Shown: positions 6,160 to 20,218, numbered from the stretch's first letter. The stretch is DNA of 64,000 nt from a virus (IMGVR_UViG_3300035698_020241:1-64000); one strand, 5' to 3'. Notes: generated by a model from the sequence alone, not told the origin. Program-made: numbers and translations.

Positions 6160-6642
6160 TTGCGAATAAGAGGAGATATGTTAAAAAAAGGAAATTATTA
6201 TGTAAGAAATAAAGATTTAGTTCCAGAGATTCATAAATATAAAGAAACTGGAAAGATATCAGAAGAATTAGGATCTATGATATTTAAGATCGCTAAGAAC
6301 TATGCCAATAAAGGTAGTTTTTCCAGATATACTTGGAAGGAAGACATGATTGGTGAAGCTGTGCTGACCTGTGTGAAATATATTCATAACTTTGACCCCA
6401 GTAAACAAAAACATCCAAACCCCTTTGCATACATAACAACTATATGTCACAATGCCTTTATCAATTTCATTAGAAAACAGAAAAGACATTCTGAGATAAA
6501 AGATAGATGTTTCAAAAAGGTACAAGTTATTGAAAATTTCACAGGGTATGTAGTAAAGGGTATCAATTATGAATTGATAAAACCAGAAGTAAAAATTAAG
6601 AAAAAGAAAAAACTAGAGGAGAGTACAAAGAATGACAAATGA
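6160..6642 (+). CDS. gp55: T4 gp55-like late-transcription sigma factor (likely start ATG 6178)
   Basis: YVRNKDL...KIAKNYANKGSFSRYTWKEDMIGEAVLTCVKYIHNFDP...NPFAYITTICHNAFINFIRKQK. GGAG RBS before 6178. Located upstream of gp47 as in T4-like phages. Confidence 0.85.
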   Translation: MRIRGDMLKKGNYYVRNKDLVPEIHKYKETGKISEELGSMIFKIAKNYANKGSFSRYTWKEDMIGEAVLTCVKYIHNFDPSKQKHPNPFAYITTICHNAFINFIRKQKRHSEIKDRCFKKVQVIENFTGYVVKGINYELIKPEVKIKKKKKLEESTKNDK

Positions 6643-6863: not shown

Positions 6864-7856
6864 GTGGAAAAATTGTTATTAATAACTGATTCACATCTGG
6901 GGATAAAAAACTCCTCTAGTGTATGGCATAAAATTGTGATAGAAATCTTCAAAGAAGTATATGATTATTGTACCAAAAATGATATAAATCGTGTATTACA
7001 TTTAGGGGACTTTTTTGATAATCGTCGGTCATTGGATGGTAGAACATATGAGGCCGCCGGTGAGATAGTTGATATAATGAGAGGCCTTCCAATGGATATC
7101 ATAACTGGTAACCACGATACATACTATAAGAATAAATTGAAACCATCATTCTTAGATATTTTCAAGGATGAAAAGGACATAACAATTATTGATGAAACAA
7201 TTCAATATAGTGATGATATAGTAATAGTACCATGGAACAGTCCTATAGATGAGAAATTTGAAGGCAAGCATTTATTTGGACACCTTGAACTTAATGGTTA
7301 CAACATGAACAGTGGTTATGTTTGCAAGAGGGGAGAAGAACCAAGTAAATACTTGAATAGGTTTGAGAATGTGTTTTCGGGTCATTTTCATGCCCCATCT
7401 GATGATGGCAGGGTAACATATCTTGGCGCTCCTTATCAACAAACTTTTCATGATAAAGATGGTAAACGAGGATTCTATACTTTTGAAGATGGTGAGTTGG
7501 AATTTATAGAGTGTAATGTAGGACCTAAATTTATAGAACTACACACTGAGGACCTTGACTTATCTAATATAAAAGGTAACATAGTTAAAATAGTATTTGA
7601 TAGGAACTATGGTACTAATGAAAACAATAAATTGGTGGAAGAGGTCTCTATGAAAGAGCCTTTTCAAATGAATGTAGATTTTTCCAATGTTTCTGATGTG
7701 GGCACAGAGGAAGTTATGGAGGATTCAATTTGTGAGTTAGTGGATCATAAAGATATAATGATAGACTATATGAAGAAATCCGATCCTCCAGAGAACATCA
7801 ATTTAAAAATGGCGATTATGATGGTAACAAAACTTATGGAAGAGGTGAAAATATAA
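6864..7856 (+). CDS. gp47: gp47-like recombination endonuclease subunit (Mre11/SbcD family)
   Basis: Metallophosphoesterase motifs ITDSHLG, HLGDFFD, ITGNHD, FGHLE, FSGHFH, YLGAPYQ. Confidence 0.92.
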   Translation: MEKLLLITDSHLGIKNSSSVWHKIVIEIFKEVYDYCTKNDINRVLHLGDFFDNRRSLDGRTYEAAGEIVDIMRGLPMDIITGNHDTYYKNKLKPSFLDIFKDEKDITIIDETIQYSDDIVIVPWNSPIDEKFEGKHLFGHLELNGYNMNSGYVCKRGEEPSKYLNRFENVFSGHFHAPSDDGRVTYLGAPYQQTFHDKDGKRGFYTFEDGELEFIECNVGPKFIELHTEDLDLSNIKGNIVKIVFDRNYGTNENNKLVEEVSMKEPFQMNVDFSNVSDVGTEEVMEDSICELVDHKDIMIDYMKKSDPPENINLKMAIMMVTKLMEEVKI

Positions 7857-9463: not shown

Positions 9464-10348
9464 ATGGGAAAGAAATTAACAATAGAAAAAGTGAAAGAAT
9501 ATATAGAGAAAGAAGGTTATAACCTTCTAAGCGATACATATATAAATAACAAAACTAAGTTAGAAATGCAATGTCCTGAAGGTCATAAATTGAAAATGAT
9601 ATTTAATAGTTTTCAGACCGGAAATAGATGTTGTATATGTTTTGGTAAGAAAAAATTTACCTACGAATATGTAAAGGAACAATTTGAAAAGGAAGGTTAT
9701 AAACTTCTAAGTGATACATATGTGGATAATATAACTAAATTAAAAGTACAATGTCCTGAAGGTCACAAATTTGGAATTAGATTGAATCATTTTAAGACAG
9801 GAATTAGATGCGCTGAATGTGCTGGTAATAAAAAACATACATACGAATTTGTAAAAGTACAAATTGAGAAGGAAGGTTATGAAATATTAAGCAAGGAATA
9901 TAAGAATAATGAAACTAAGTTACAATTACAATGTCCAAAGGGTCATAAAATGGAAATGAAATGGAGTAGTTTTAATAGAGGTGAAAGATGTCCTATATGT
10001 TGGGAAGAACAATCATTCTCAAAACCTGAAAAGGAAGTATTGGAAATAGTAAAATCATTTACAGGTGAATTGGTAGTTGAAAATGATAGAACACAAATAA
10101 TAAATCCTAAAACAGGTAATAACTTAGAATTAGATGTTTGGATACCTTCATTGAGTAAAGCAATTGAATTCAATGGTACATATTGGCATAGTAGTGATTA
10201 TTCCAAATATAAGGATAAACAAAAGGTAATACAGTGTAAAGAAAAAGGTATTGATTTAATGGTAATAACTGATGAAGATTGGTTAAAAAATAGAAAAATG
10301 TTGGAAAGAAAAATAAAAAAATATGTAAGGAGAGATAAAAATGAGTAG
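9464..10348 (+). mobile_element. Free-standing putative homing endonuclease (zinc-ribbon repeats plus Vsr/PD-(D/E)XK-like domain)
   Basis: Three repeats of EKEGY.LLS..Y..N.TKL...CP.GH...CxxC. C-terminal ELDVWIPSLSKAIEFNGTYWH. Confidence 0.75.
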
Positions 10349-10888: not shown

Positions 10889-11473
10889 ATGAATAAATTA
10901 ATAAGTGTTATTTTGAATATACGATCATGGGTTGTAAATACATTTCGTAAGTTTCTAAAAAAACATGGAATATGGAAGAAGTTTCAAGCATATACTATTC
11001 CAAGTAAAGTAAGACAATGGCAAGAAAGAGAGAGAAAGGATTTAGGATATGTAAAAATGCAAAAAGGTGTGGTTGATATGGTATTAGCTAAAAAACTACA
11101 TAAAGAAATGCTTAGAGATATTAAGTACATATCAGATAAAGAAAATTATGGTAAAAAGGAATACTGGGCATCCTCTAAAGAAGTAATAGAGAGAATGCAG
11201 GACGATTGTGATGGACAAGCCGTGTATATGTGGAGAAAATTAAGAGATGCTGGATTTCCTGATGATAAAATAGGTATCTGTATAGTAAAACAACATGCAT
11301 TTTGTATAATAATAATTAACGATAAAGATTTTTGGTTGTTAGACAACGGTGCTATTTCAAGACAAATCGTAAAGGCAAGTAATACATTCCCAATAATAAT
11401 ACAGGGTGTATATAGAGAACCTCTTTATGGTTTTAATCTTTTTGATTATTGGTTATACGGTGGTGTAAAATAA
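10889..11473 (+). CDS. Transglutaminase-like cysteine peptidase
   Basis: DDCDGQAV (GDCED-like), HAF, WLLDNG catalytic-triad pattern. EYW motif upstream. Confidence 0.7.
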   Translation: MNKLISVILNIRSWVVNTFRKFLKKHGIWKKFQAYTIPSKVRQWQERERKDLGYVKMQKGVVDMVLAKKLHKEMLRDIKYISDKENYGKKEYWASSKEVIERMQDDCDGQAVYMWRKLRDAGFPDDKIGICIVKQHAFCIIIINDKDFWLLDNGAISRQIVKASNTFPIIIQGVYREPLYGFNLFDYWLYGGVK

Positions 11474-11475
11474 TA

Positions 11476-11646
11476 ATGTTAGTATGTGAAACAGGTGAAT
11501 ATATGTACAATCCCGCAGATATTTTATGTATCTATTGTGGGTTTGCTACATTGTGTAGATTTGATATATGGGGAAAAAGAGCAGGTAAGCCACTAATAAA
11601 TTTGGAAGAATATGAAATGGAATTATTAGGGGTTGTACCTATATGA
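11476..11646 (+). CDS. Small Cys-containing hypothetical protein
   Basis: ATG at 11476, in frame with track ORF 11449..11646. Contains CxxC...C. Confidence 0.45.
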   Translation: MLVCETGEYMYNPADILCIYCGFATLCRFDIWGKRAGKPLINLEEYEMELLGVVPI

Positions 11647-11652
11647 GGTAAA

Positions 11653-11865
11653 ATGAAAATAGAGTTAAAAGATGTGAAATTTAAAAACTTCCTCAGTTTT
11701 GGAAGTAAGTGGCAAGAGGTTAAACTTAGACACGGTGTGAATTTAGTCTTAGGATATGATGAAGAAAACGATAAAAGTAATGGTAGTGGTAAGTGTGTTG
11801 CGTTTAATACCCTTATCAATATTGAATGTTCTAAGGAAATTAGGAAAATTTTAGAAGGCATGTAA
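11653..11865 (+). CDS. gp46: gp46 (Rad50/SbcC) N-extein (47 aa) fused to a 23-aa split-intein N-fragment
   Basis: IELKDVKFKNFLSFG...NLVLG...NGSGK, then CVAFNTLINI (intein block A, Cys at 11794), then a stop after 23 residues. Confidence 0.88.
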   Translation: MKIELKDVKFKNFLSFGSKWQEVKLRHGVNLVLGYDEENDKSNGSGKCVAFNTLINIECSKEIRKILEGM

Positions 11866-11909
11866 ACAACCTTGGAATATAAAATAAACGGGAGTGGAAT
11901 ATAAAAGTA

Positions 11910-12923
11910 ATGATATGTAAATATCCTAATTGCAATAATGAAACACATACTTATAAAGGAAAGAAAACACCAGATTTATTCTGTAAAAAACACTGTACAA
12001 TTCAGAATCTAATTACTTTTCAAATTAGATTTGGAGAGAAAGAAGGAAAAAATAGATATTCTAAAATGTTAGAAAAAAGACGGAGATCAAAAACTCTTGA
12101 AGGTATGGTTGAAAAATATGGAGAAATTAATGGTAAAAAGAGATGGGAAGATTATTGTTATAAGCAAGGAAAAAGAAATACTCTTGAAGGTCAGATTGAA
12201 TATTGGGGTAAAGAATTAGGAATTAAAAAATATAAAGAACGATGTTATAATTGTGGTAAACCAGTAAGAATAGATTATTTTCTTGAAAAAACAAATGGAA
12301 ATAGAGAATTAGCAGAACAAATGTTGAAAGAAAGGCAAGCAACATTCTCAAAAGAAAAATGTATAGAAAAACATGGGAAAATAAAAGGATTAAAAGTTTG
12401 GAAAGATAGACAAGATAGATGGCAAAAAACTTTAAAATCTAAATCACCTGAGGAAATAGAAAGGATAAACAAAAAGAAAGCCATAACAAAAGAAAATCTT
12501 ATAAAAATATATGGTGAAGTAATTGGTAAACAAAAACACAATGAATGGTTGAAAAAAATAACAAACTGTTTACCAAATTCTATTTCAAAAGCATCCAAAG
12601 AATTTTTTATAGATATAGAAAAAGAATTATCTATAAAAATATTAAAAGAACAAGTAATTGGAAATTATATTGTTGACGGAAAATTCAATAATATTATAAT
12701 AGAATTTTATGGTGATTATTGGCATTGTAACCCAAAAATATATAAAGATGATTATTATCATGCTAAATTAAAAATGTTTGCTAAACAAAAATGGAAAATA
12801 GATAGAAAAAGAGAAAAAACATTAAAAGAGTTAGGATATGATGTATTAGTTGTATGGGAAAATAATTGGACGAATAATAAGGAGAATATTATAAAAAAAT
12901 GTTGTGTGAAATTGGTAAAATAG
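11910..12923 (+). mobile_element. Free-standing Vsr-like homing endonuclease inserted between the split-intein halves
   Basis: Repeated EKYGE..GKKRW-type motifs. C-terminal YIVDG...IIEFYGDYWH...DRKRE..LKELGYDVLVVWE. Lies in a different frame from both gp46 pieces. Confidence 0.8.
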
Positions 12924-15337
12924 TAAAATTATACAAAGAACATCCAGAATATATTGGTAAAGTTTTTGTTGATACTCCTTATGGTAAAAAAAGAATACTT
13001 TATGCTGACATTGTTGAAAAAAACACAGAAGTATATAAACTGAAAACAGATATATATGAACTTATAGGTTCACCACAACATAGAGTAGAATGTAATAACA
13101 AGTGGATGTATTTAAAAGATATTTCCAATGGTGATTTTGTTAGCACAATAAATGGTAAAAAGAAAGTATTGTTATGTCAAAAAGAAAATGATTTATATGA
13201 TTTATATGATATACAAGTTGAAGATGTAGAACAATATTATTCTAATGGAATACTTTCTCATAATTCATCTTTCCTTGAAACTATACCTTTTGCACTATTT
13301 GGTAAAGTTCATAAGGATATAAAAAAAGACCAAATAGTTAATTGGAAAAATAGAAAAGGTTGTGAGGTTCACCTAACATTTACGAAAGGTGAATCAGAAT
13401 ATAGAGTATATAGAGGTATCAAACCTGATAAGTTTGAAATATATAAAGACGAAGTATTGGTTGATAAGCCGGCACATGTCAAGGATTATCAGTTAATACT
13501 TGATGGTATTATAGGCTTAAATTACAACGTCTTCATGAGCCTTGTCCATTCTAATATCAATTCATCTGCACCAATTCTGGCGATGAAAAAACCCGATAAA
13601 CGAAAATTTATAGAGAAATCGTTTGGTCTTGAGTTATATACAAAACTTCATGAGATTTGTAATGAAAAACTCAAGAAAGGTAATGAGAAGATAAAAGAAA
13701 TGGAATTCTCTACACTTAAAAACAATGAGGCTGTAAAATTAGCCGAGGAAAGAGTCGCATCTATTAATAGAAAATTAAAGGAAATGGGATCATCAGTAAT
13801 TGAATTAAAAGATGCAGAAGAAAAACTGAAGGAACTTATTGATGGTGATGAAGACTGGGACGAACAACTTGATGCTGCAAGTACTGAACTTAAAATAGTT
13901 GATGAGGCTGATTCACATCATTCATGGCTTGTAAAAGCTATAGAAGGTAAAATGGCTCTTACAACTCAAAAGATAAAAATGATGATTAACCAAGTTCAAA
14001 GTTTAAAATCTGATATAAGTAAAACAGAAGACATAGAGACCAAAAAAAGGAAGATAACAGCCATTCTGAAATTATGGGGTGATGAAGATATAATATCAGA
14101 AAAAATAGGGTTAACAAAAGCTCTTATCAATGACTATAATATAAGAATAGATCATCATTTAGAAAATACACAAAAACTACAAATTGATGTTACAAGTTGT
14201 AAAAAGAATGTCAAAAAGATACAACACCAATGGGGTGTATTGAAAATAGATAAAAAATGTCCAACATGTAATACGAATGTTGAAGGTACTGACATTCTAA
14301 AGAACTTGGAAAGAGATATGAAAGAAGATCAGGATTTTGCGGATAGACAAACTGAACAAATTAAAAAAATAGTTGCAGATGTTGATGAAATAAGAAAAAG
14401 TCATAAAACGAATAGTGGACTTTTGAAAGAGTTGGAAGATGTAAAGATGCAATACTTATTACTTGAAAAAGAGGTAACAAGTAGTAATTATGATGAACTT
14501 ATAGAAAGATTAGATATATTAAATAATAAAATAACTCGTACACGGTCTGTTGCTGATAAGTTGAGGACTAAAAGGGATGAAATTGATGCTTATAGGGAGA
14601 AGTCTATAAGTAGAATTGAGATTTTGAAGGAAGAGAAAAATGATTTTCTTAATAAGATCAATAATATATCAGATGCTCAAAAACAAGTAGATAAATTAGA
14701 TGAGAAGGTATCACTTGAAGTAGATAACAAATCAACATATGTTACACTGGTTAAAAAAGATGAGAAAAATATAAAAAGGTTACTATCTGAAAATAGAAGT
14801 TTTATTGCAAAGGTTAGTAAGTTGTCCGATCTCAAGGATTATATTAATTTTATAAAAACATGTTGCGGTGATGATAAGGTAAAACAATATGCAATAAGTT
14901 CAATAATGCCGTATCTTAACAAACAAACGAACCATTATTTATCAGATGTAGGCCATAATTTCTGGGTAAAACTAGATAAATGGTTAGAAGCCCGGATAGA
15001 AGGACCTGGTATTATTAATGGTAGTTATGGTTCATTAAGTGGAGGTGAAGGACGAGTTATAGATTTATCACTTCAATTTGCCTTTCTTGATATTGCGAGA
15101 CTTAGAGCAGGTGTATTTCCATCTATATTAATTTTTGATGAAATACTTGACAGTAGTATTGATGTTCAAGGGTTACAAAAAATTATAGATATCGTTAAAA
15201 TTAAACAGAAAGAAGATAATTCACAAGTATTCATAATTAGTCATAGGCAAGAAATAGATGAACTTGAGGTTGATGATGTTTATTTTGTTACAAAAAGTGA
15301 AGGATATTCAAGTATTGAAATCAAGGAATCTATATAA
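12899..15337 (+). CDS. gp46: Split-intein C-fragment (122 aa, 12899-13264) fused to gp46 C-extein
   Basis: Block B GSPQH, block F LYDIQVEDVEQYYSNG, block G LSHN|S. Then SSFLETIPFALFGK, coiled coil, zinc hook CPTC, signature LSGGE, Walker B IFDE, ISH. Confidence 0.92.
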   Translation: MLCEIGKIVKLYKEHPEYIGKVFVDTPYGKKRILYADIVEKNTEVYKLKTDIYELIGSPQHRVECNNKWMYLKDISNGDFVSTINGKKKVLLCQKENDLYDLYDIQVEDVEQYYSNGILSHNSSFLETIPFALFGKVHKDIKKDQIVNWKNRKGCEVHLTFTKGESEYRVYRGIKPDKFEIYKDEVLVDKPAHVKDYQLILDGIIGLNYNVFMSLVHSNINSSAPILAMKKPDKRKFIEKSFGLELYTKLHEICNEKLKKGNEKIKEMEFSTLKNNEAVKLAEERVASINRKLKEMGSSVIELKDAEEKLKELIDGDEDWDEQLDAASTELKIVDEADSHHSWLVKAIEGKMALTTQKIKMMINQVQSLKSDISKTEDIETKKRKITAILKLWGDEDIISEKIGLTKALINDYNIRIDHHLENTQKLQIDVTSCKKNVKKIQHQWGVLKIDKKCPTCNTNVEGTDILKNLERDMKEDQDFADRQTEQIKKIVADVDEIRKSHKTNSGLLKELEDVKMQYLLLEKEVTSSNYDELIERLDILNNKITRTRSVADKLRTKRDEIDAYREKSISRIEILKEEKNDFLNKINNISDAQKQVDKLDEKVSLEVDNKSTYVTLVKKDEKNIKRLLSENRSFIAKVSKLSDLKDYINFIKTCCGDDKVKQYAISSIMPYLNKQTNHYLSDVGHNFWVKLDKWLEARIEGPGIINGSYGSLSGGEGRVIDLSLQFAFLDIARLRAGVFPSILIFDEILDSSIDVQGLQKIIDIVKIKQKEDNSQVFIISHRQEIDELEVDDVYFVTKSEGYSSIEIKESI

Positions 15338-16090
15338 GTGAAAAACTTTGGTATAATATATAAGGTAACTAATATTCTTAATGGTAAAATTTATATAGGA
15401 CAGACTATTAGAGGTTTAGAAGTAAGGGGGCAATGTCATATATCTGAATCAAAAAATGGTAATACATATTTTAATAGAGCTTTAAGAAAATATTGTCCGG
15501 AAAACTTTGAATGGGAAGTTATTGAAGAATGTTATTCAAAGGAAGATTTAGATTTAGCCGAAGAATGGTATATTAGATATTATAACACTTTCGGATCAAA
15601 TGGATATAATTTGACGTTTGGTGGAGAGGGAACTATAGGTTGGAAACCTTCAGAAGAGACAAGGAAAAAGATTAGTAAATCCATGTGTGGTGAGAATAAT
15701 CCTAACTATGGTAAGGAACGTTCTGAAGAGTATAGAAAAAAATTAAGTGATACATTAAAAGGTAGAAAACACTCAGAAGGACATAAGAGAAAGTTAAGTG
15801 AAGTTAATAAAGGTAAAAAACTTTCAGAAGAGACAAGGAAAAAGATGGGCGAATCGCGTAAAGGTGAAAAAAATGTAAGAGCAAAGAAGAGGGTTGTTAT
15901 AAGACCCGATGGTAGAAAATATTTTTGTCACGGAACATTTACTAAACTTTGTAAAGAATTTAGTAAAGAGTTTAAAAAGAATATGTTAAGATTTTTGATT
16001 GATGTTAATAAGTCCGGGAAAGAAATAAATGGTTGGGTGGTTTTTGATGTTGATGATACACCTACAAATGAAAATATTATCATATATTAG
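15338..16090 (+). mobile_element. GIY-YIG homing endonuclease with NUMOD3-like repeats
   Basis: GIIY...IYIGQT, FNRALRKY, GYNLTFGGEG, HSEETRKK-type repeats. Abuts the gp46 stop. Confidence 0.88.
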
Positions 16091-16102
16091 AAAAAACAAT
16101 AG

Positions 16103-16131
16103 TTTACAATTTTATTCAATTGTGTTATAAT
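16103..16131 (+). promoter_or_regulatory. Sigma70-type early promoter
   Basis: TTTACA-N17-TATAAT with TGT. Confidence 0.85.
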
Positions 16132-16154
16132 TTATTTAATGAAAGGAATATGAA

Positions 16155-16337
16155 ATGAGGATATCAGAAAAACAATTACAAGCATTGATGGTTATTTTGA
16201 AAGATTCTATAAACCAGAATATTGTTGGTATATTTAGTTTAACATGGGAAGATAGACGAGACTTAATTAATGAGATAGTTAATCAACAAAGTGATGTATT
16301 AATAGATGTGGAGGGAGATAAACAAATTGAAAGTTAA
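16155..16337 (+). CDS. Hypothetical protein
   Basis: First ORF after the promoter; AAGGA RBS. Confidence 0.55.
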   Translation: MRISEKQLQALMVILKDSINQNIVGIFSLTWEDRRDLINEIVNQQSDVLIDVEGDKQIES

Positions 16338-16803
16338 CAGTGTGGAATATGACGATACCCATATTGAATTGTTCCTTGAGAAACTATTCTGGAGTGCAGG
16401 AGAAGGAGGAGGAGCAGCTCAACTGTTATTAGAAAAACTAGCTTACGGTGATAATATTATTATTGCTGATAAAACACATGAGGAAACTCTTAATCAAGTA
16501 GCAGAGTTAAAAAATGAACTTAAATTGGTAAATAATGATTTGGAAAGTTATACAGATGAATTTACAAAATCTAGAAAATCATTAAAAGATGCTCAATTTA
16601 CGATATATAATCAAAATAAAGAAAAGAGAAAACTAATAATTGAGTGTGATAGTTATGCAGATCAAGTAACAGAATATGAAAGAATATGCGGCCTTGTTAA
16701 TTTATGGGAAAAAAGACCAAAAGAAAATATGATAGAAGTTGATAGAACCGATTTAGTATCAGGATTATTTGAAGATGAAGATGAAGATGAAGTACAATTT
16801 TAA
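16306..16803 (+). CDS. Hypothetical coiled-coil protein with acidic tail
   Basis: ORF within the operon; start uncertain. Confidence 0.55.
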   Translation: MWREINKLKVNSVEYDDTHIELFLEKLFWSAGEGGGAAQLLLEKLAYGDNIIIADKTHEETLNQVAELKNELKLVNNDLESYTDEFTKSRKSLKDAQFTIYNQNKEKRKLIIECDSYADQVTEYERICGLVNLWEKRPKENMIEVDRTDLVSGLFEDEDEDEVQF

Positions 16804-18654: not shown

Positions 18655-19025
18655 TGTTTGATGATATGATAGAAAAAGAAGAAGATTTAAAAATGCCAGA
18701 GGTAACACAAGAATATGATAAACTAAAAAAAGGTGGAGGTCCAAGAACAGGAACAGTATCAGGTCCAAGAACAGGTGCAGGAACAGGACAAAAGTACCCT
18801 AAAGCAACGACTATTATAGGTAGTGGCCCTAATGTATATCCATGTAATATTCCTGATTGTAGATATTACAGTAAGTGGACAATTGATCATCCAGCTAATT
18901 TTGGTATTGCAAGAAAAGGAAGCGGACTTGGAAATGGCTCTATAACACCAGATAATGGTTTGAATCCTGAGTGGTGTATGGCTTGTGAAGATTTCGAAGG
19001 AGTTACTGTAAGGAGAAAAAAATAA
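18654..19025 (+). CDS. Hypothetical protein with GPRTG repeat and Cys motifs
   Basis: TAATG coupling; 24-bp internal repeat. Confidence 0.5.
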   Translation: MFDDMIEKEEDLKMPEVTQEYDKLKKGGGPRTGTVSGPRTGAGTGQKYPKATTIIGSGPNVYPCNIPDCRYYSKWTIDHPANFGIARKGSGLGNGSITPDNGLNPEWCMACEDFEGVTVRRKK

Positions 19026-20218
19026 TGGGATTATTAGAATTACAACACAGATTAGAAAAAGTGAAAGGTACTCATGTAAGTATACTATCACAATCGGAGA
19101 TAGCCTCTACTAAAGAGTGGATGCCAACGCCGGCGTTAGATTTAAACCGCATATTATCAGGGTCACTATTCAAAGGACTTCCAAGTAAAACCTTTACTCT
19201 ATTTATAGGACCCGAAGCTACTGGAAAAAGTAGTTTCATGTGTTTGTGTTTATCAGAAGCCCAGAAACAAGGATATACCCCTGTGGTTATTGACACAGAG
19301 GGTGCATGGACTTCTGACTTTGTGACCAGATGGAACCTTAACCCTGATAATATGCTTTATATATACACACCATGGATTGATAAAGTAATATCAACACTTG
19401 GTGAGATAATACAATCAGGAGAAGAAAAAATTGCTATTGTTCTTGATAGTATTGGTGGTCTTGAAAGATATAAAGTAATGACTGATATTATCGGTAAAGA
19501 CGGAGCAGTTGCAAATGCGGCAAAAGCTGACCAAGGACAACTTCAAAAAGAGATCAAAAGAATGTTGAAGATGTTAGTGAATATATGTAAGGCTCAAGGA
19601 AGTATAGCAATGGGTGCAGGACATTATTATGGTAATCCTACTGGATATGGTGATCCTGATCAAATAGGTGGTGGAAAATATATAAGACTGGCAGCTGATA
19701 CTATAGTGTCTCTTAAAAGATCAAAACTATTTGAAAATCCAAATGCATCAGGTCCTGCAAGAGGTGATGTAATAGGAAGTTTAGTTAAGGCGTGTACTTT
19801 AAAAAATAGATATTATCCTCCATTTGAAGAAGCAATAGTTGAAATAAACTATAAGGATGGTATAAACAAATATGCAGGTATTATGGAATTACTTGTAAAG
19901 GCTAATATAGTTTCATTAGGTGGCGGTGGTTGGTATGATATTGGTGGACAAAAATATCAAGGTAAACCTAAAGCAGAAGCTGCTTTAAGTACTATGCCCG
20001 ATATTTTCAATAAACTTAATAAGTGGTTAGAATCAACTGGATATTCAACTGTCAATGAAAATGTAAAGGCAGCCGAGGAATTACTTGTTGAACCAAAAGA
20101 AAAAACAGGAAAACCAGAACCACCAGAAGACAGAAAGGTAAAAGAAGGCACACAACCAACTGCTATAAAGAAGAAAAAACCTGTAAAAAAAAGTACCACA
20201 AGGATAACTAAAAAATAA
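19025..20218 (+). CDS. uvsX: RecA/UvsX-like recombinase
   Basis: Walker A GPEATGKS, VVIDTEGA, IVLDSIGGL, GGGKYIRLAAD, KNRYYPPF. Lys-rich C-terminal tail. Confidence 0.92.
   Translation: MGLLELQHRLEKVKGTHVSILSQSEIASTKEWMPTPALDLNRILSGSLFKGLPSKTFTLFIGPEATGKSSFMCLCLSEAQKQGYTPVVIDTEGAWTSDFVTRWNLNPDNMLYIYTPWIDKVISTLGEIIQSGEEKIAIVLDSIGGLERYKVMTDIIGKDGAVANAAKADQGQLQKEIKRMLKMLVNICKAQGSIAMGAGHYYGNPTGYGDPDQIGGGKYIRLAADTIVSLKRSKLFENPNASGPARGDVIGSLVKACTLKNRYYPPFEEAIVEINYKDGINKYAGIMELLVKANIVSLGGGGWYDIGGQKYQGKPKAEAALSTMPDIFNKLNKWLESTGYSTVNENVKAAEELLVEPKEKTGKPEPPEDRKVKEGTQPTAIKKKKPVKKSTTRITKK

Follow-up and report, generated by a model that had tools for sequence, protein, structure and literature searches.

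A gp46 gene of a T4-like phage apparently fractured by an atypically split intein with an inserted Vsr-like endonuclease gene

The gp46 gene of an uncultured T4-like phage from salt-lake metagenomes, whose predicted product is an ATPase of the Rad50/SbcC type, lies in two pieces at positions 11653 to 15337 of the stretch IMGVR_UViG_3300035698_020241:1-64000. This stretch of 64,000 nucleotides (hereafter the window) forms the beginning of a virus record of 126 kb in IMG/VR, with an estimated completeness of about 53%. Three open reading frames (ORFs) follow one another on the plus strand: gp46 piece 1 (11653-11865, 70 aa), a free-standing Vsr-like homing-endonuclease ORF of the EDxHD or I-Bth0305I type (11910-12923, 337 aa) and gp46 piece 2 (12899-15337, 812 aa). 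Each of them is in a frame of its own, as the starts at 11653, 11910 and 12899 leave remainders of 1, 0 and 2 when divided by 3. The endonuclease ORF is separated from the stop codon of piece 1 by a spacer of 44 nt (11866-11909), with the sequence GGGAG at 11890-11894, and its 3' end overlaps the start of piece 2 by 25 nt. Within the 126-kb record gp46, the intein described below and the endonuclease are all present as single copies.

Piece 1 consists of a 47-aa N-extein (11653-11793), which ends in SNGSGK and so closes with the first half of the Walker A motif (NGSGK, with the Lys47 codon at 11791-11793), and of a 23-aa tail, CVAFNTLINIECSKEIRKILEGM, followed by a stop codon (11794-11865). 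The tail corresponds to block A of an intein, with Cys1 as the putative nucleophile directly after Lys47, and represents the N-terminal intein part (IntN). Piece 2 opens with 122 aa (12899-13264) that end in YYSNGILSHN and are followed by SSFLETIPFALFGK. These residues carry the intein blocks B (S58-P59-Q60-H61), F (L102-Y103-D104) and G (S120-H121-N122) and represent the C-terminal intein part (IntC), which is encoded in a different frame from IntN and 1033 nt away from it. The rest of piece 2 is a C-extein of 690 aa plus stop codon (13265-15337), whose first residue, Ser+1, completes GSGK-S. The insertion site is thus between the Lys and the Ser of Walker A (GSGK/S; here and below a slash marks the insertion point). 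The first-pass annotation of this DNA had described gp46 in two ORFs of different frames, the first ending in GSGK with a short tail and the second opening with 122 intein-like residues, and the ORF listing agrees with it throughout.

The two exteins fit together exactly. In phrog_77, the SbcC-like profile of PHROG, residues 1-47 of piece 1 cover positions 294-333 and residues 123-809 of piece 2 cover positions 334-955 (E = 2.5e-83), so that the exteins abut at 333/334. An intein-less homologue of 737 aa, P0002, has GSGKTS at residues 44-49, its Walker A Lys being residue 47, and its residues 48-735 align with the 690-aa C-extein with no gaps and 64% identity. The predicted spliced gp46, with 47 + 690 = 737 aa, is equal in length to P0002. 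The exact abutment in the profile and the gapless alignment lead us to reject a chance origin of the arrangement, and the claim of the first-pass annotation that joining the exteins restores Walker A is borne out. A hidden Markov model (HMM) of the N-extein matches that of the window with an E-value of 1.6e-26, and Pfam SMC_N matches the C-extein. The latter also holds the zinc hook CPTC (14258-14269, piece 2 residues 454-457), the signature LSGGE (15035-15049, residues 713-717), the DE of Walker B (within 15131-15145) and, as the His of the H-loop, piece 2 His782 (within 15236-15250), which are hallmarks of Rad50. The Glu-C peptide predicted to span the junction is NDKSNGSGKSSFLE; tryptic digestion is unsuited to it, because the Walker A Lys lies inside, while Glu-C or chymotrypsin suits.

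The residues between the exteins have the sequence and the predicted fold of an intein. The start of IntN, CVAFNTLINI, fits the pattern C-V-x-x-x-T-x-I-x-I of its relatives, and IntN can be aligned with the IntN of related split loci (CV.G.T.I.I) and with the N-terminus of the intein in the contiguous homologue P0004. In a profile made from 19 IntC sequences, taken from the window, from loci related to it and from short proteins of the database, H61, D104 and N116 (the first Asn of block G) are invariant in all 19, H121 and N122 nearly so, and the full catalytic set is kept in the window (Cys1, His61, Asp104, His121-Asn122 and Ser+1). Searched against the PDB as a single sequence, IntC has VidaL as its best match (E = 7e-4). 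With the profile each of the 18 top-scoring distinct sequences is an intein or an intein-like HINT domain, among them VidaL (7e-14), gp41-1 (9e-14), CatC (7e-13), DnaX, NrdJ-1, CDC21 and RadA. The AlphaFold2 model of IntC alone has a mean pLDDT (predicted local distance difference test) of 95.2. Foldseek places VidaL first, with a template modelling (TM) score of 0.81 and a root-mean-square deviation of 1.9 Å, and all the matches listed at E <= 1e-3 are again inteins or intein-like HINT domains. Two contiguous relatives, P0051 and P0126, exceed the Pfam cut-off for Intein_splicing (PF14890, 35.8) with scores of 37.0 and 37.4, and P0051 also passes the PT-HINT threshold. Catalytic residues, profile and fold agree in supporting the split intein that had been proposed.

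That the two parts belong to one intein is indicated by unsplit versions at the same site. A single frame encodes G.GK-C...SHN-SS in three homologues, P0004 (881 aa), P0051 (727 aa) and P0112 (933 aa). Residues 1-65 of piece 1 (N-extein and IntN) correspond to residues 1-65 of P0004 with 48% identity, and residues 3-265 of piece 2 align with residues 80-342. The window pieces thus tile P0004, leaving over at the split a loop of about 14 residues, and it is at the position of this loop that the endonuclease gene is found in the window. In VidaL numbering IntC starts at about residue 22-24, while VidaL is split at 16/17 and CatC starts slightly later; as the start is only a few residues past the VidaL split, the split is of the atypical, N-proximal kind, and we infer where exactly it falls in the S1/S2 scheme of PMC13014065. 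The division into 23 and 122 aa in separate ORFs, already called atypical in the first-pass annotation, is in line with this, and on the strength of sequence and model the window intein is judged to be a genuine atypically split intein, probably active.

A contiguous, in-frame protein version such as P0004 also speaks against the possibility that the two gp46 pieces are joined at the level of RNA or of translation, either by a group I intron in which the endonuclease ORF is carried or by bypassing ribosomes, and that the resemblance to intein motifs is a coincidence. T4-like phages carry group I introns. Vsr-like endonucleases too are found in such introns, for example in those of recA (Dassa et al., 2009; PMC2677866). 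When the region 11000-16500 was searched against Rfam at E <= 1, however, no intron family was obtained and the two matches were chance eukaryotic ones; the 44-nt spacer has no stable fold (z = 0.72), and folds at the junctions are no better than those of shuffled sequences, in agreement with the earlier judgement that the spacer leaves no room for a self-splicing intron. Such a joining would also leave unexplained 23 + 122 residues that are intein-like both in fold and in score, and we give this explanation next to no probability.

An assembly or sequencing artefact, either through frameshift errors that interrupt what is really one continuous ORF or through a chimeric contig, might be considered since the record is assembled from a metagenome at low depth, with contig word depths of 2-6. 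Yet independently assembled Logan contigs of four metagenome runs from salt lakes, one of which may be the source sample, align within 11400-13600 with no substitution, insertion or deletion and bridge both junctions. The one between piece 1 and the endonuclease is spanned by X2 (11817-12255) and X3 (11761-11941), and the one between the endonuclease and piece 2 by X1 (12570-13005), X2 (12817-12967), X3 (12815-13008) and X4 (12886-13075). The inserted ORF is a complete endonuclease gene, which a frameshift would not produce, and the three-ORF layout, with the overlap of IntC and endonuclease, recurs in dozens of unrelated contigs. An artefact is accordingly considered extremely improbable.

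The ORF between the two intein parts is, by sequence comparison and predicted fold, a Vsr-like endonuclease of the I-Bth0305I type, as had been suggested. Pfam assigns it to DUF559 with 22.5 bits, just above the cut-off of 20.6, and MTES_1575 is below its cut-off; in PHROG it matches phrog_22677 (3e-24). A phmmer search of the endonuclease against the PDB returned zero matches, and the relation came from the fold search. An AlphaFold2 model built on an alignment of 16 such gap ORFs is confident only in the C-terminal domain (pLDDT 88-95), for which the best Foldseek match is I-Bth0305I (3r3p, target TM 0.73), followed by the DUF559 protein NGO0050 (3hrl) and then by Escherichia coli Vsr (1vsr). 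The protein is made up of an N-terminal Cys-rich motif (C3, C8, C25, C29), helical repeats and a catalytic domain at about residues 227-337. D256, E265 and H272 are invariant in all 16 homologues and D269 is present in 11 of them; the first three are the counterparts of an Asp, of a Glu specific to the family and of a His described by Dassa et al. (2009; PMC2677866), which in Vsr numbering are Asp51, the Glu at the position of Phe62 and His69.

The window endonuclease appears, from such comparisons, to be modular. The nuclease domain shares 30-40% identity with the endonucleases of a second class of related loci (see below) and 17-24% with those associated with its own intein class, the central module resembles both to about the same degree, and the Cys-rich N-terminal motif is not present in the relatives of the 16-ORF alignment. 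Other contigs from the same salt-lake metagenomes match only 30-40 nt at the catalytic motif (12610-12725) and then diverge; these loose ends suggest that related endonuclease genes reside in other elements of the community. As a descriptive comparison, the protein motif at the insertion site, [KR]SNG[AS]GK/SSFLE, is conserved in 20 intein-less loci with a DNA identity of 57-71%.

Relatives of the locus are abundant. An exhaustive HMMER search with IntC gave 287 clusters (at 50% identity) at E <= 1e-3, of which 78 at E <= 1e-10. In a rough motif tally of the best 150 clusters about two thirds are SbcC-like, about 73 start with IntC and would be split, and about 25 have an internal, contiguous intein. 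The remaining ones have P-loops of the DnaB/gp41-like helicase kind (HN/SW...GKN: P0180, P0210, P0247, P0251 and P0260) or of the large-terminase (TerL-like) kind (HN/TT...: P0191, P0207, P0227 and P0259), and these helicase- and terminase-hosted relatives exist both contiguous and split. Relatives are encoded in 274 stretches of IMG/VR, and the best 80 loci were examined with the N-extein HMM. Besides the window about 38 of them have a small upstream ORF that ends in G.GK followed by a short Cys-initiated tail. The recurrent layout is an ORF with N-extein and IntN, then a gap, about 1.0-1.1 kb long, in which an endonuclease ORF lies, and lastly an ORF with IntC and C-extein. At the loci examined IntC starts before the endonuclease ORF has ended, within its 3' end. 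By contrast, viral-contig scans with single proteins (piece 2 or P0002) gave no matches, while an alignment query did find relatives. A DNA search of the phage collection gave short matches to the endonuclease gene and no close relative of the locus, and a metagenome scan returned intein-less alleles alone (32-65% identity).

The split loci can be sorted mainly by the length of IntN. A window-like class, with IntN of 23-31 aa (L003 to L008 and L018), has gaps of 1.0-1.1 kb and endonuclease ORFs of 337-367 aa, with the exception of L004. The second class, of about 29 loci, has IntN of 31-42 aa, plus one truncated tail of 16 aa, and mostly a similar gap. Two loci, L024 (3444-4969) and L045 (3618-4962), are canonically split at the same GK/S site, with IntN of about 100 aa and a different nuclease ORF, of 290-347 aa, after the IntN ORF. 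An endonuclease gene on the same strand lies between the intein halves in L003, L005 to L008, L018 and about 25 loci of the second class. L004 (4421-5366), the closest relative of the window intein, also has a 23-aa IntN; its gap is of 355 nt and the ORF in it consists of the nuclease domain alone, 52% identical to residues 214-335 of the window endonuclease, with neither the N-terminal two thirds nor an obvious start, so that L004 looks like a decaying endonuclease within a still intact split gene. In L025 (4553-5243) and L028 (4371-5069) the gaps are of 67 and 54 nt, and in L011 (3648-3863) the halves overlap by 17 nt; these three, with IntN of 31-40 aa, have no endonuclease ORF. The remnant in L004 and the lack of any endonuclease in L025 and L028 indicate that the split form is maintained without it.

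These observations are relevant to a third explanation, by which intein and gp46 alike have been inactivated by the insertion, the pieces being non-functional remnants or a non-covalent pair held together by the intein halves without splicing, and the host SbcCD or another nuclease is used in their place. A precedent in its favour is an SbcD-like gene that is fractured by a Vsr-like endonuclease in the absence of an intein (Dassa et al., 2009; PMC2677866). Both ORFs of the window are however intact and every catalytic intein residue is retained. Intein positions are conserved to the same degree as those of the extein among the eight closest full-length relatives, and across relatives with 33-47% extein identity the conservation of the intein equals or exceeds that of the extein. 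The roughly 38 further contigs, including those devoid of an endonuclease, retain the split layout, and a P-loop cut between its Lys and Ser would be unlikely to bind ATP unless ligated. A broken gene is on this basis an improbable explanation, even if a less remote one than an intron or an artefact.

Several points nevertheless weigh against a functional split intein, and some of them speak for a broken gene. Pfam gives no match on the IntC or the IntN of the window, whose recognition needed family profiles and fold comparison; among public runs no RNA run contains the stretch, and the case for splicing is built on sequence and model; the predicted structure is that of IntC alone, onto which IntN would dock; and, the record being about 53% complete, a second, intact gp46 may exist elsewhere in the genome. 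As for the endonuclease, the usual acidic residue D298 is kept in 13 of the 16 homologues and is hence not invariant, and both activity and target are predictions. Taking these points together with the evidence above, we regard it as highly probable that the gp46 gene of this T4-like phage is fractured by a split intein of 23 + 122 aa, with a Vsr-like endonuclease gene inserted.

The events can be pictured as follows. The endonuclease gene would have been inserted, in another frame, into a loop of the intein about 23 residues from its start, thus generating the 23-aa IntN and the 122-aa IntC. Both halves would be translated, probably from a single transcript, and the docking of IntN into the nearly complete IntC would complete the HINT fold. 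Trans-splicing of class 1 would then proceed by formation of a thioester at Cys1, transfer to Ser+1 and cyclisation of Asn122, and would yield a 737-aa gp46 with a normal P-loop, acting with gp47. In co-infections the endonuclease would presumably cleave intein-less gp46 alleles near the sequence coding for SNG[AS]GK/SSFLE, and recombinational repair would then copy the entire cassette of intein and endonuclease (homing).

The extein of the window is 64% identical to intein-less P0002 and 33-47% identical to the intein-bearing alleles found, while IntC is 41-56% identical to that of the same alleles. The closer relation of the extein to P0002 would fit either a lateral gain of the cassette or a recent loss in the P0002 lineage. 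More tentatively, and with rather more doubt than confidence, it can be proposed that the GK/S Walker A of phage gp46/SbcC is a hot spot that hosts a full natural series of one intein lineage. This series would include contiguous mini-inteins, at least two classes with short IntN (23-31 and 32-42 aa), canonical splits (about 100 aa) and splits lacking an endonuclease, and the endonuclease modules appear to have been exchanged between classes, the window combining an intein of the first class with a nuclease domain of the type found in the second.

The surroundings of the locus are those of a T4-like genome, as the predicted gene order is gp55, gp47, gp46, UvsX, with the late sigma factor gp55 at 6160-6642, UvsX at 19025-20218 and a thymidylate-synthase-like gene listed between the gp46 locus and UvsX. 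A gp47 or SbcD (Mre11)-like nuclease gene at 6864-7856 on the plus strand (phrog_100 SbcD-like, 2.4e-64; Pfam Metallophos) encodes the expected partner of spliced gp46. It is separated from gp46 by about 3.8 kb with five ORFs, two of which are for a metallopeptidase and a BTLCP-like protease, and an HNH/CapR-like endonuclease gene (9464-10348; phrog_559, 1e-56) lies in between. A seg-like GIY-YIG/NUMOD3 homing-endonuclease gene (15338-16090, plus strand; NUMOD3 7e-22 and GIY-YIG 8e-7 in Pfam, phrog_314 2.5e-46), which is outside the intein, begins on the base directly after the gp46 stop codon, so that mobile nuclease genes lie next to gp46 as well as inside it. Three homing-endonuclease-like genes (HNH/CapR-like, Vsr-like and GIY-YIG/NUMOD3) are thus held within 7 kb. 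In scans for sigma-70 promoters and terminators at the locus the scores were no better than those of shuffled sequences, and the same was true of the occurrence of the T4 late-promoter motif TATAAATA.

The fractured-gene layout, for which the first-pass annotation had invoked a precedent, and the Vsr-like family were defined by Dassa, London, Stoddard, Schueler-Furman and Pietrokovski (Dassa et al., 2009; PMC2677866). As in the window, the host genes of that study function in DNA metabolism and are divided into two ORFs on the same strand with an intein half on each, the halves are separated by a free-standing gene for a homing endonuclease of the GIY-YIG or the Vsr-like kind, and the elements are mainly phage-borne, from environmental metagenomes and with overlapping coding frames. 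Their hosts are gp41 helicase, IMPDH, DnaE, NrdA, NrdJ, DNA ligase, terminase and one unknown gene, while gp46/Rad50/SbcC is absent; the inteins are mostly canonically split, with a long IntN, in contrast to the 23 aa of the window, and their SbcD-like example has the endonuclease without an intein, whereas the window has both. The window endonuclease shares with I-Bth0305I (PDB 3r3p) the catalytic fold and a long N-terminal helical region, rich in repeats and presumed to bind DNA, but the two are only about 17% identical, and I-Bth0305I belongs to a group I intron within a phage recA gene, while the window enzyme is free-standing in a split intein.

Natural atypically split inteins are also known, and the few that have been characterised are AceL-TerL, GOS-TerL, VidaL and PolB16, with IntN of 15-37 aa (PMC13014065). 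VidaL (PDB 6vgv/6vgw; Burton et al., 2020, cited in PMC13014065) is, like the window intein, naturally atypically split and cysteine-dependent with Ser at +1; the two are about 25% identical and VidaL has an IntN of 16 aa, split right after strand beta2, compared with 23 aa in the window. AceL-TerL, GOS-TerL and the consensus intein Cat (Thiel 2014; Bachmann and Mootz 2015; PDB 6dsl) share with the window the atypical split and a phage P-loop ATPase as host, with IntN of 25, 37 and 30 aa and IntC of 104-115 aa, and AceL-TerL comes from an Antarctic saline lake as the window comes from a salt-lake phage. They differ in the host protein (large terminase rather than gp46) and in the nucleophiles (Cys1/Cys+1 or Ser1/Cys+1 rather than Cys1/Ser+1), and they have been characterised biochemically, whereas the window intein is known from sequence and model. 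Literature searches combining intein with gp46, SbcC or Rad50 gave no description of such a case (Burton 2020 and Neugebauer 2017 being outside the scope). This kind of element is already known, and gp46/SbcC as its host is apparently new to the literature searched, in which we found no paper on it. The suggestion of a new split-intein allele holds with respect to that literature, although the family is abundant in metagenomes.

A short IntN is prized since it is accessible to peptide synthesis and hence to the semisynthesis and labelling of proteins. This locus would add, as a candidate ligation tool predicted from its sequence, an IntN of 23 aa with Cys1/Ser+1 chemistry and from a saline habitat. 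As a large natural family at one site, its relatives would allow sequence variation, cross-reactivity and the evolution of the split site to be compared side by side and, if most of them are active, they would constitute a natural library, as yet uncharacterised, of split inteins that are peptide-accessible and possibly orthogonal. The relatives also illustrate the cycle of invasion, splitting and endonuclease decay proposed for fractured genes, a mechanism that is not in itself new. If splicing does take place, an essential recombination ATPase of the phage would be made solely after a ligation inside its own P-loop; the element would then reside inside the recombination nuclease on which T4-type homing depends, and may couple its own spread to the function that it interrupts.

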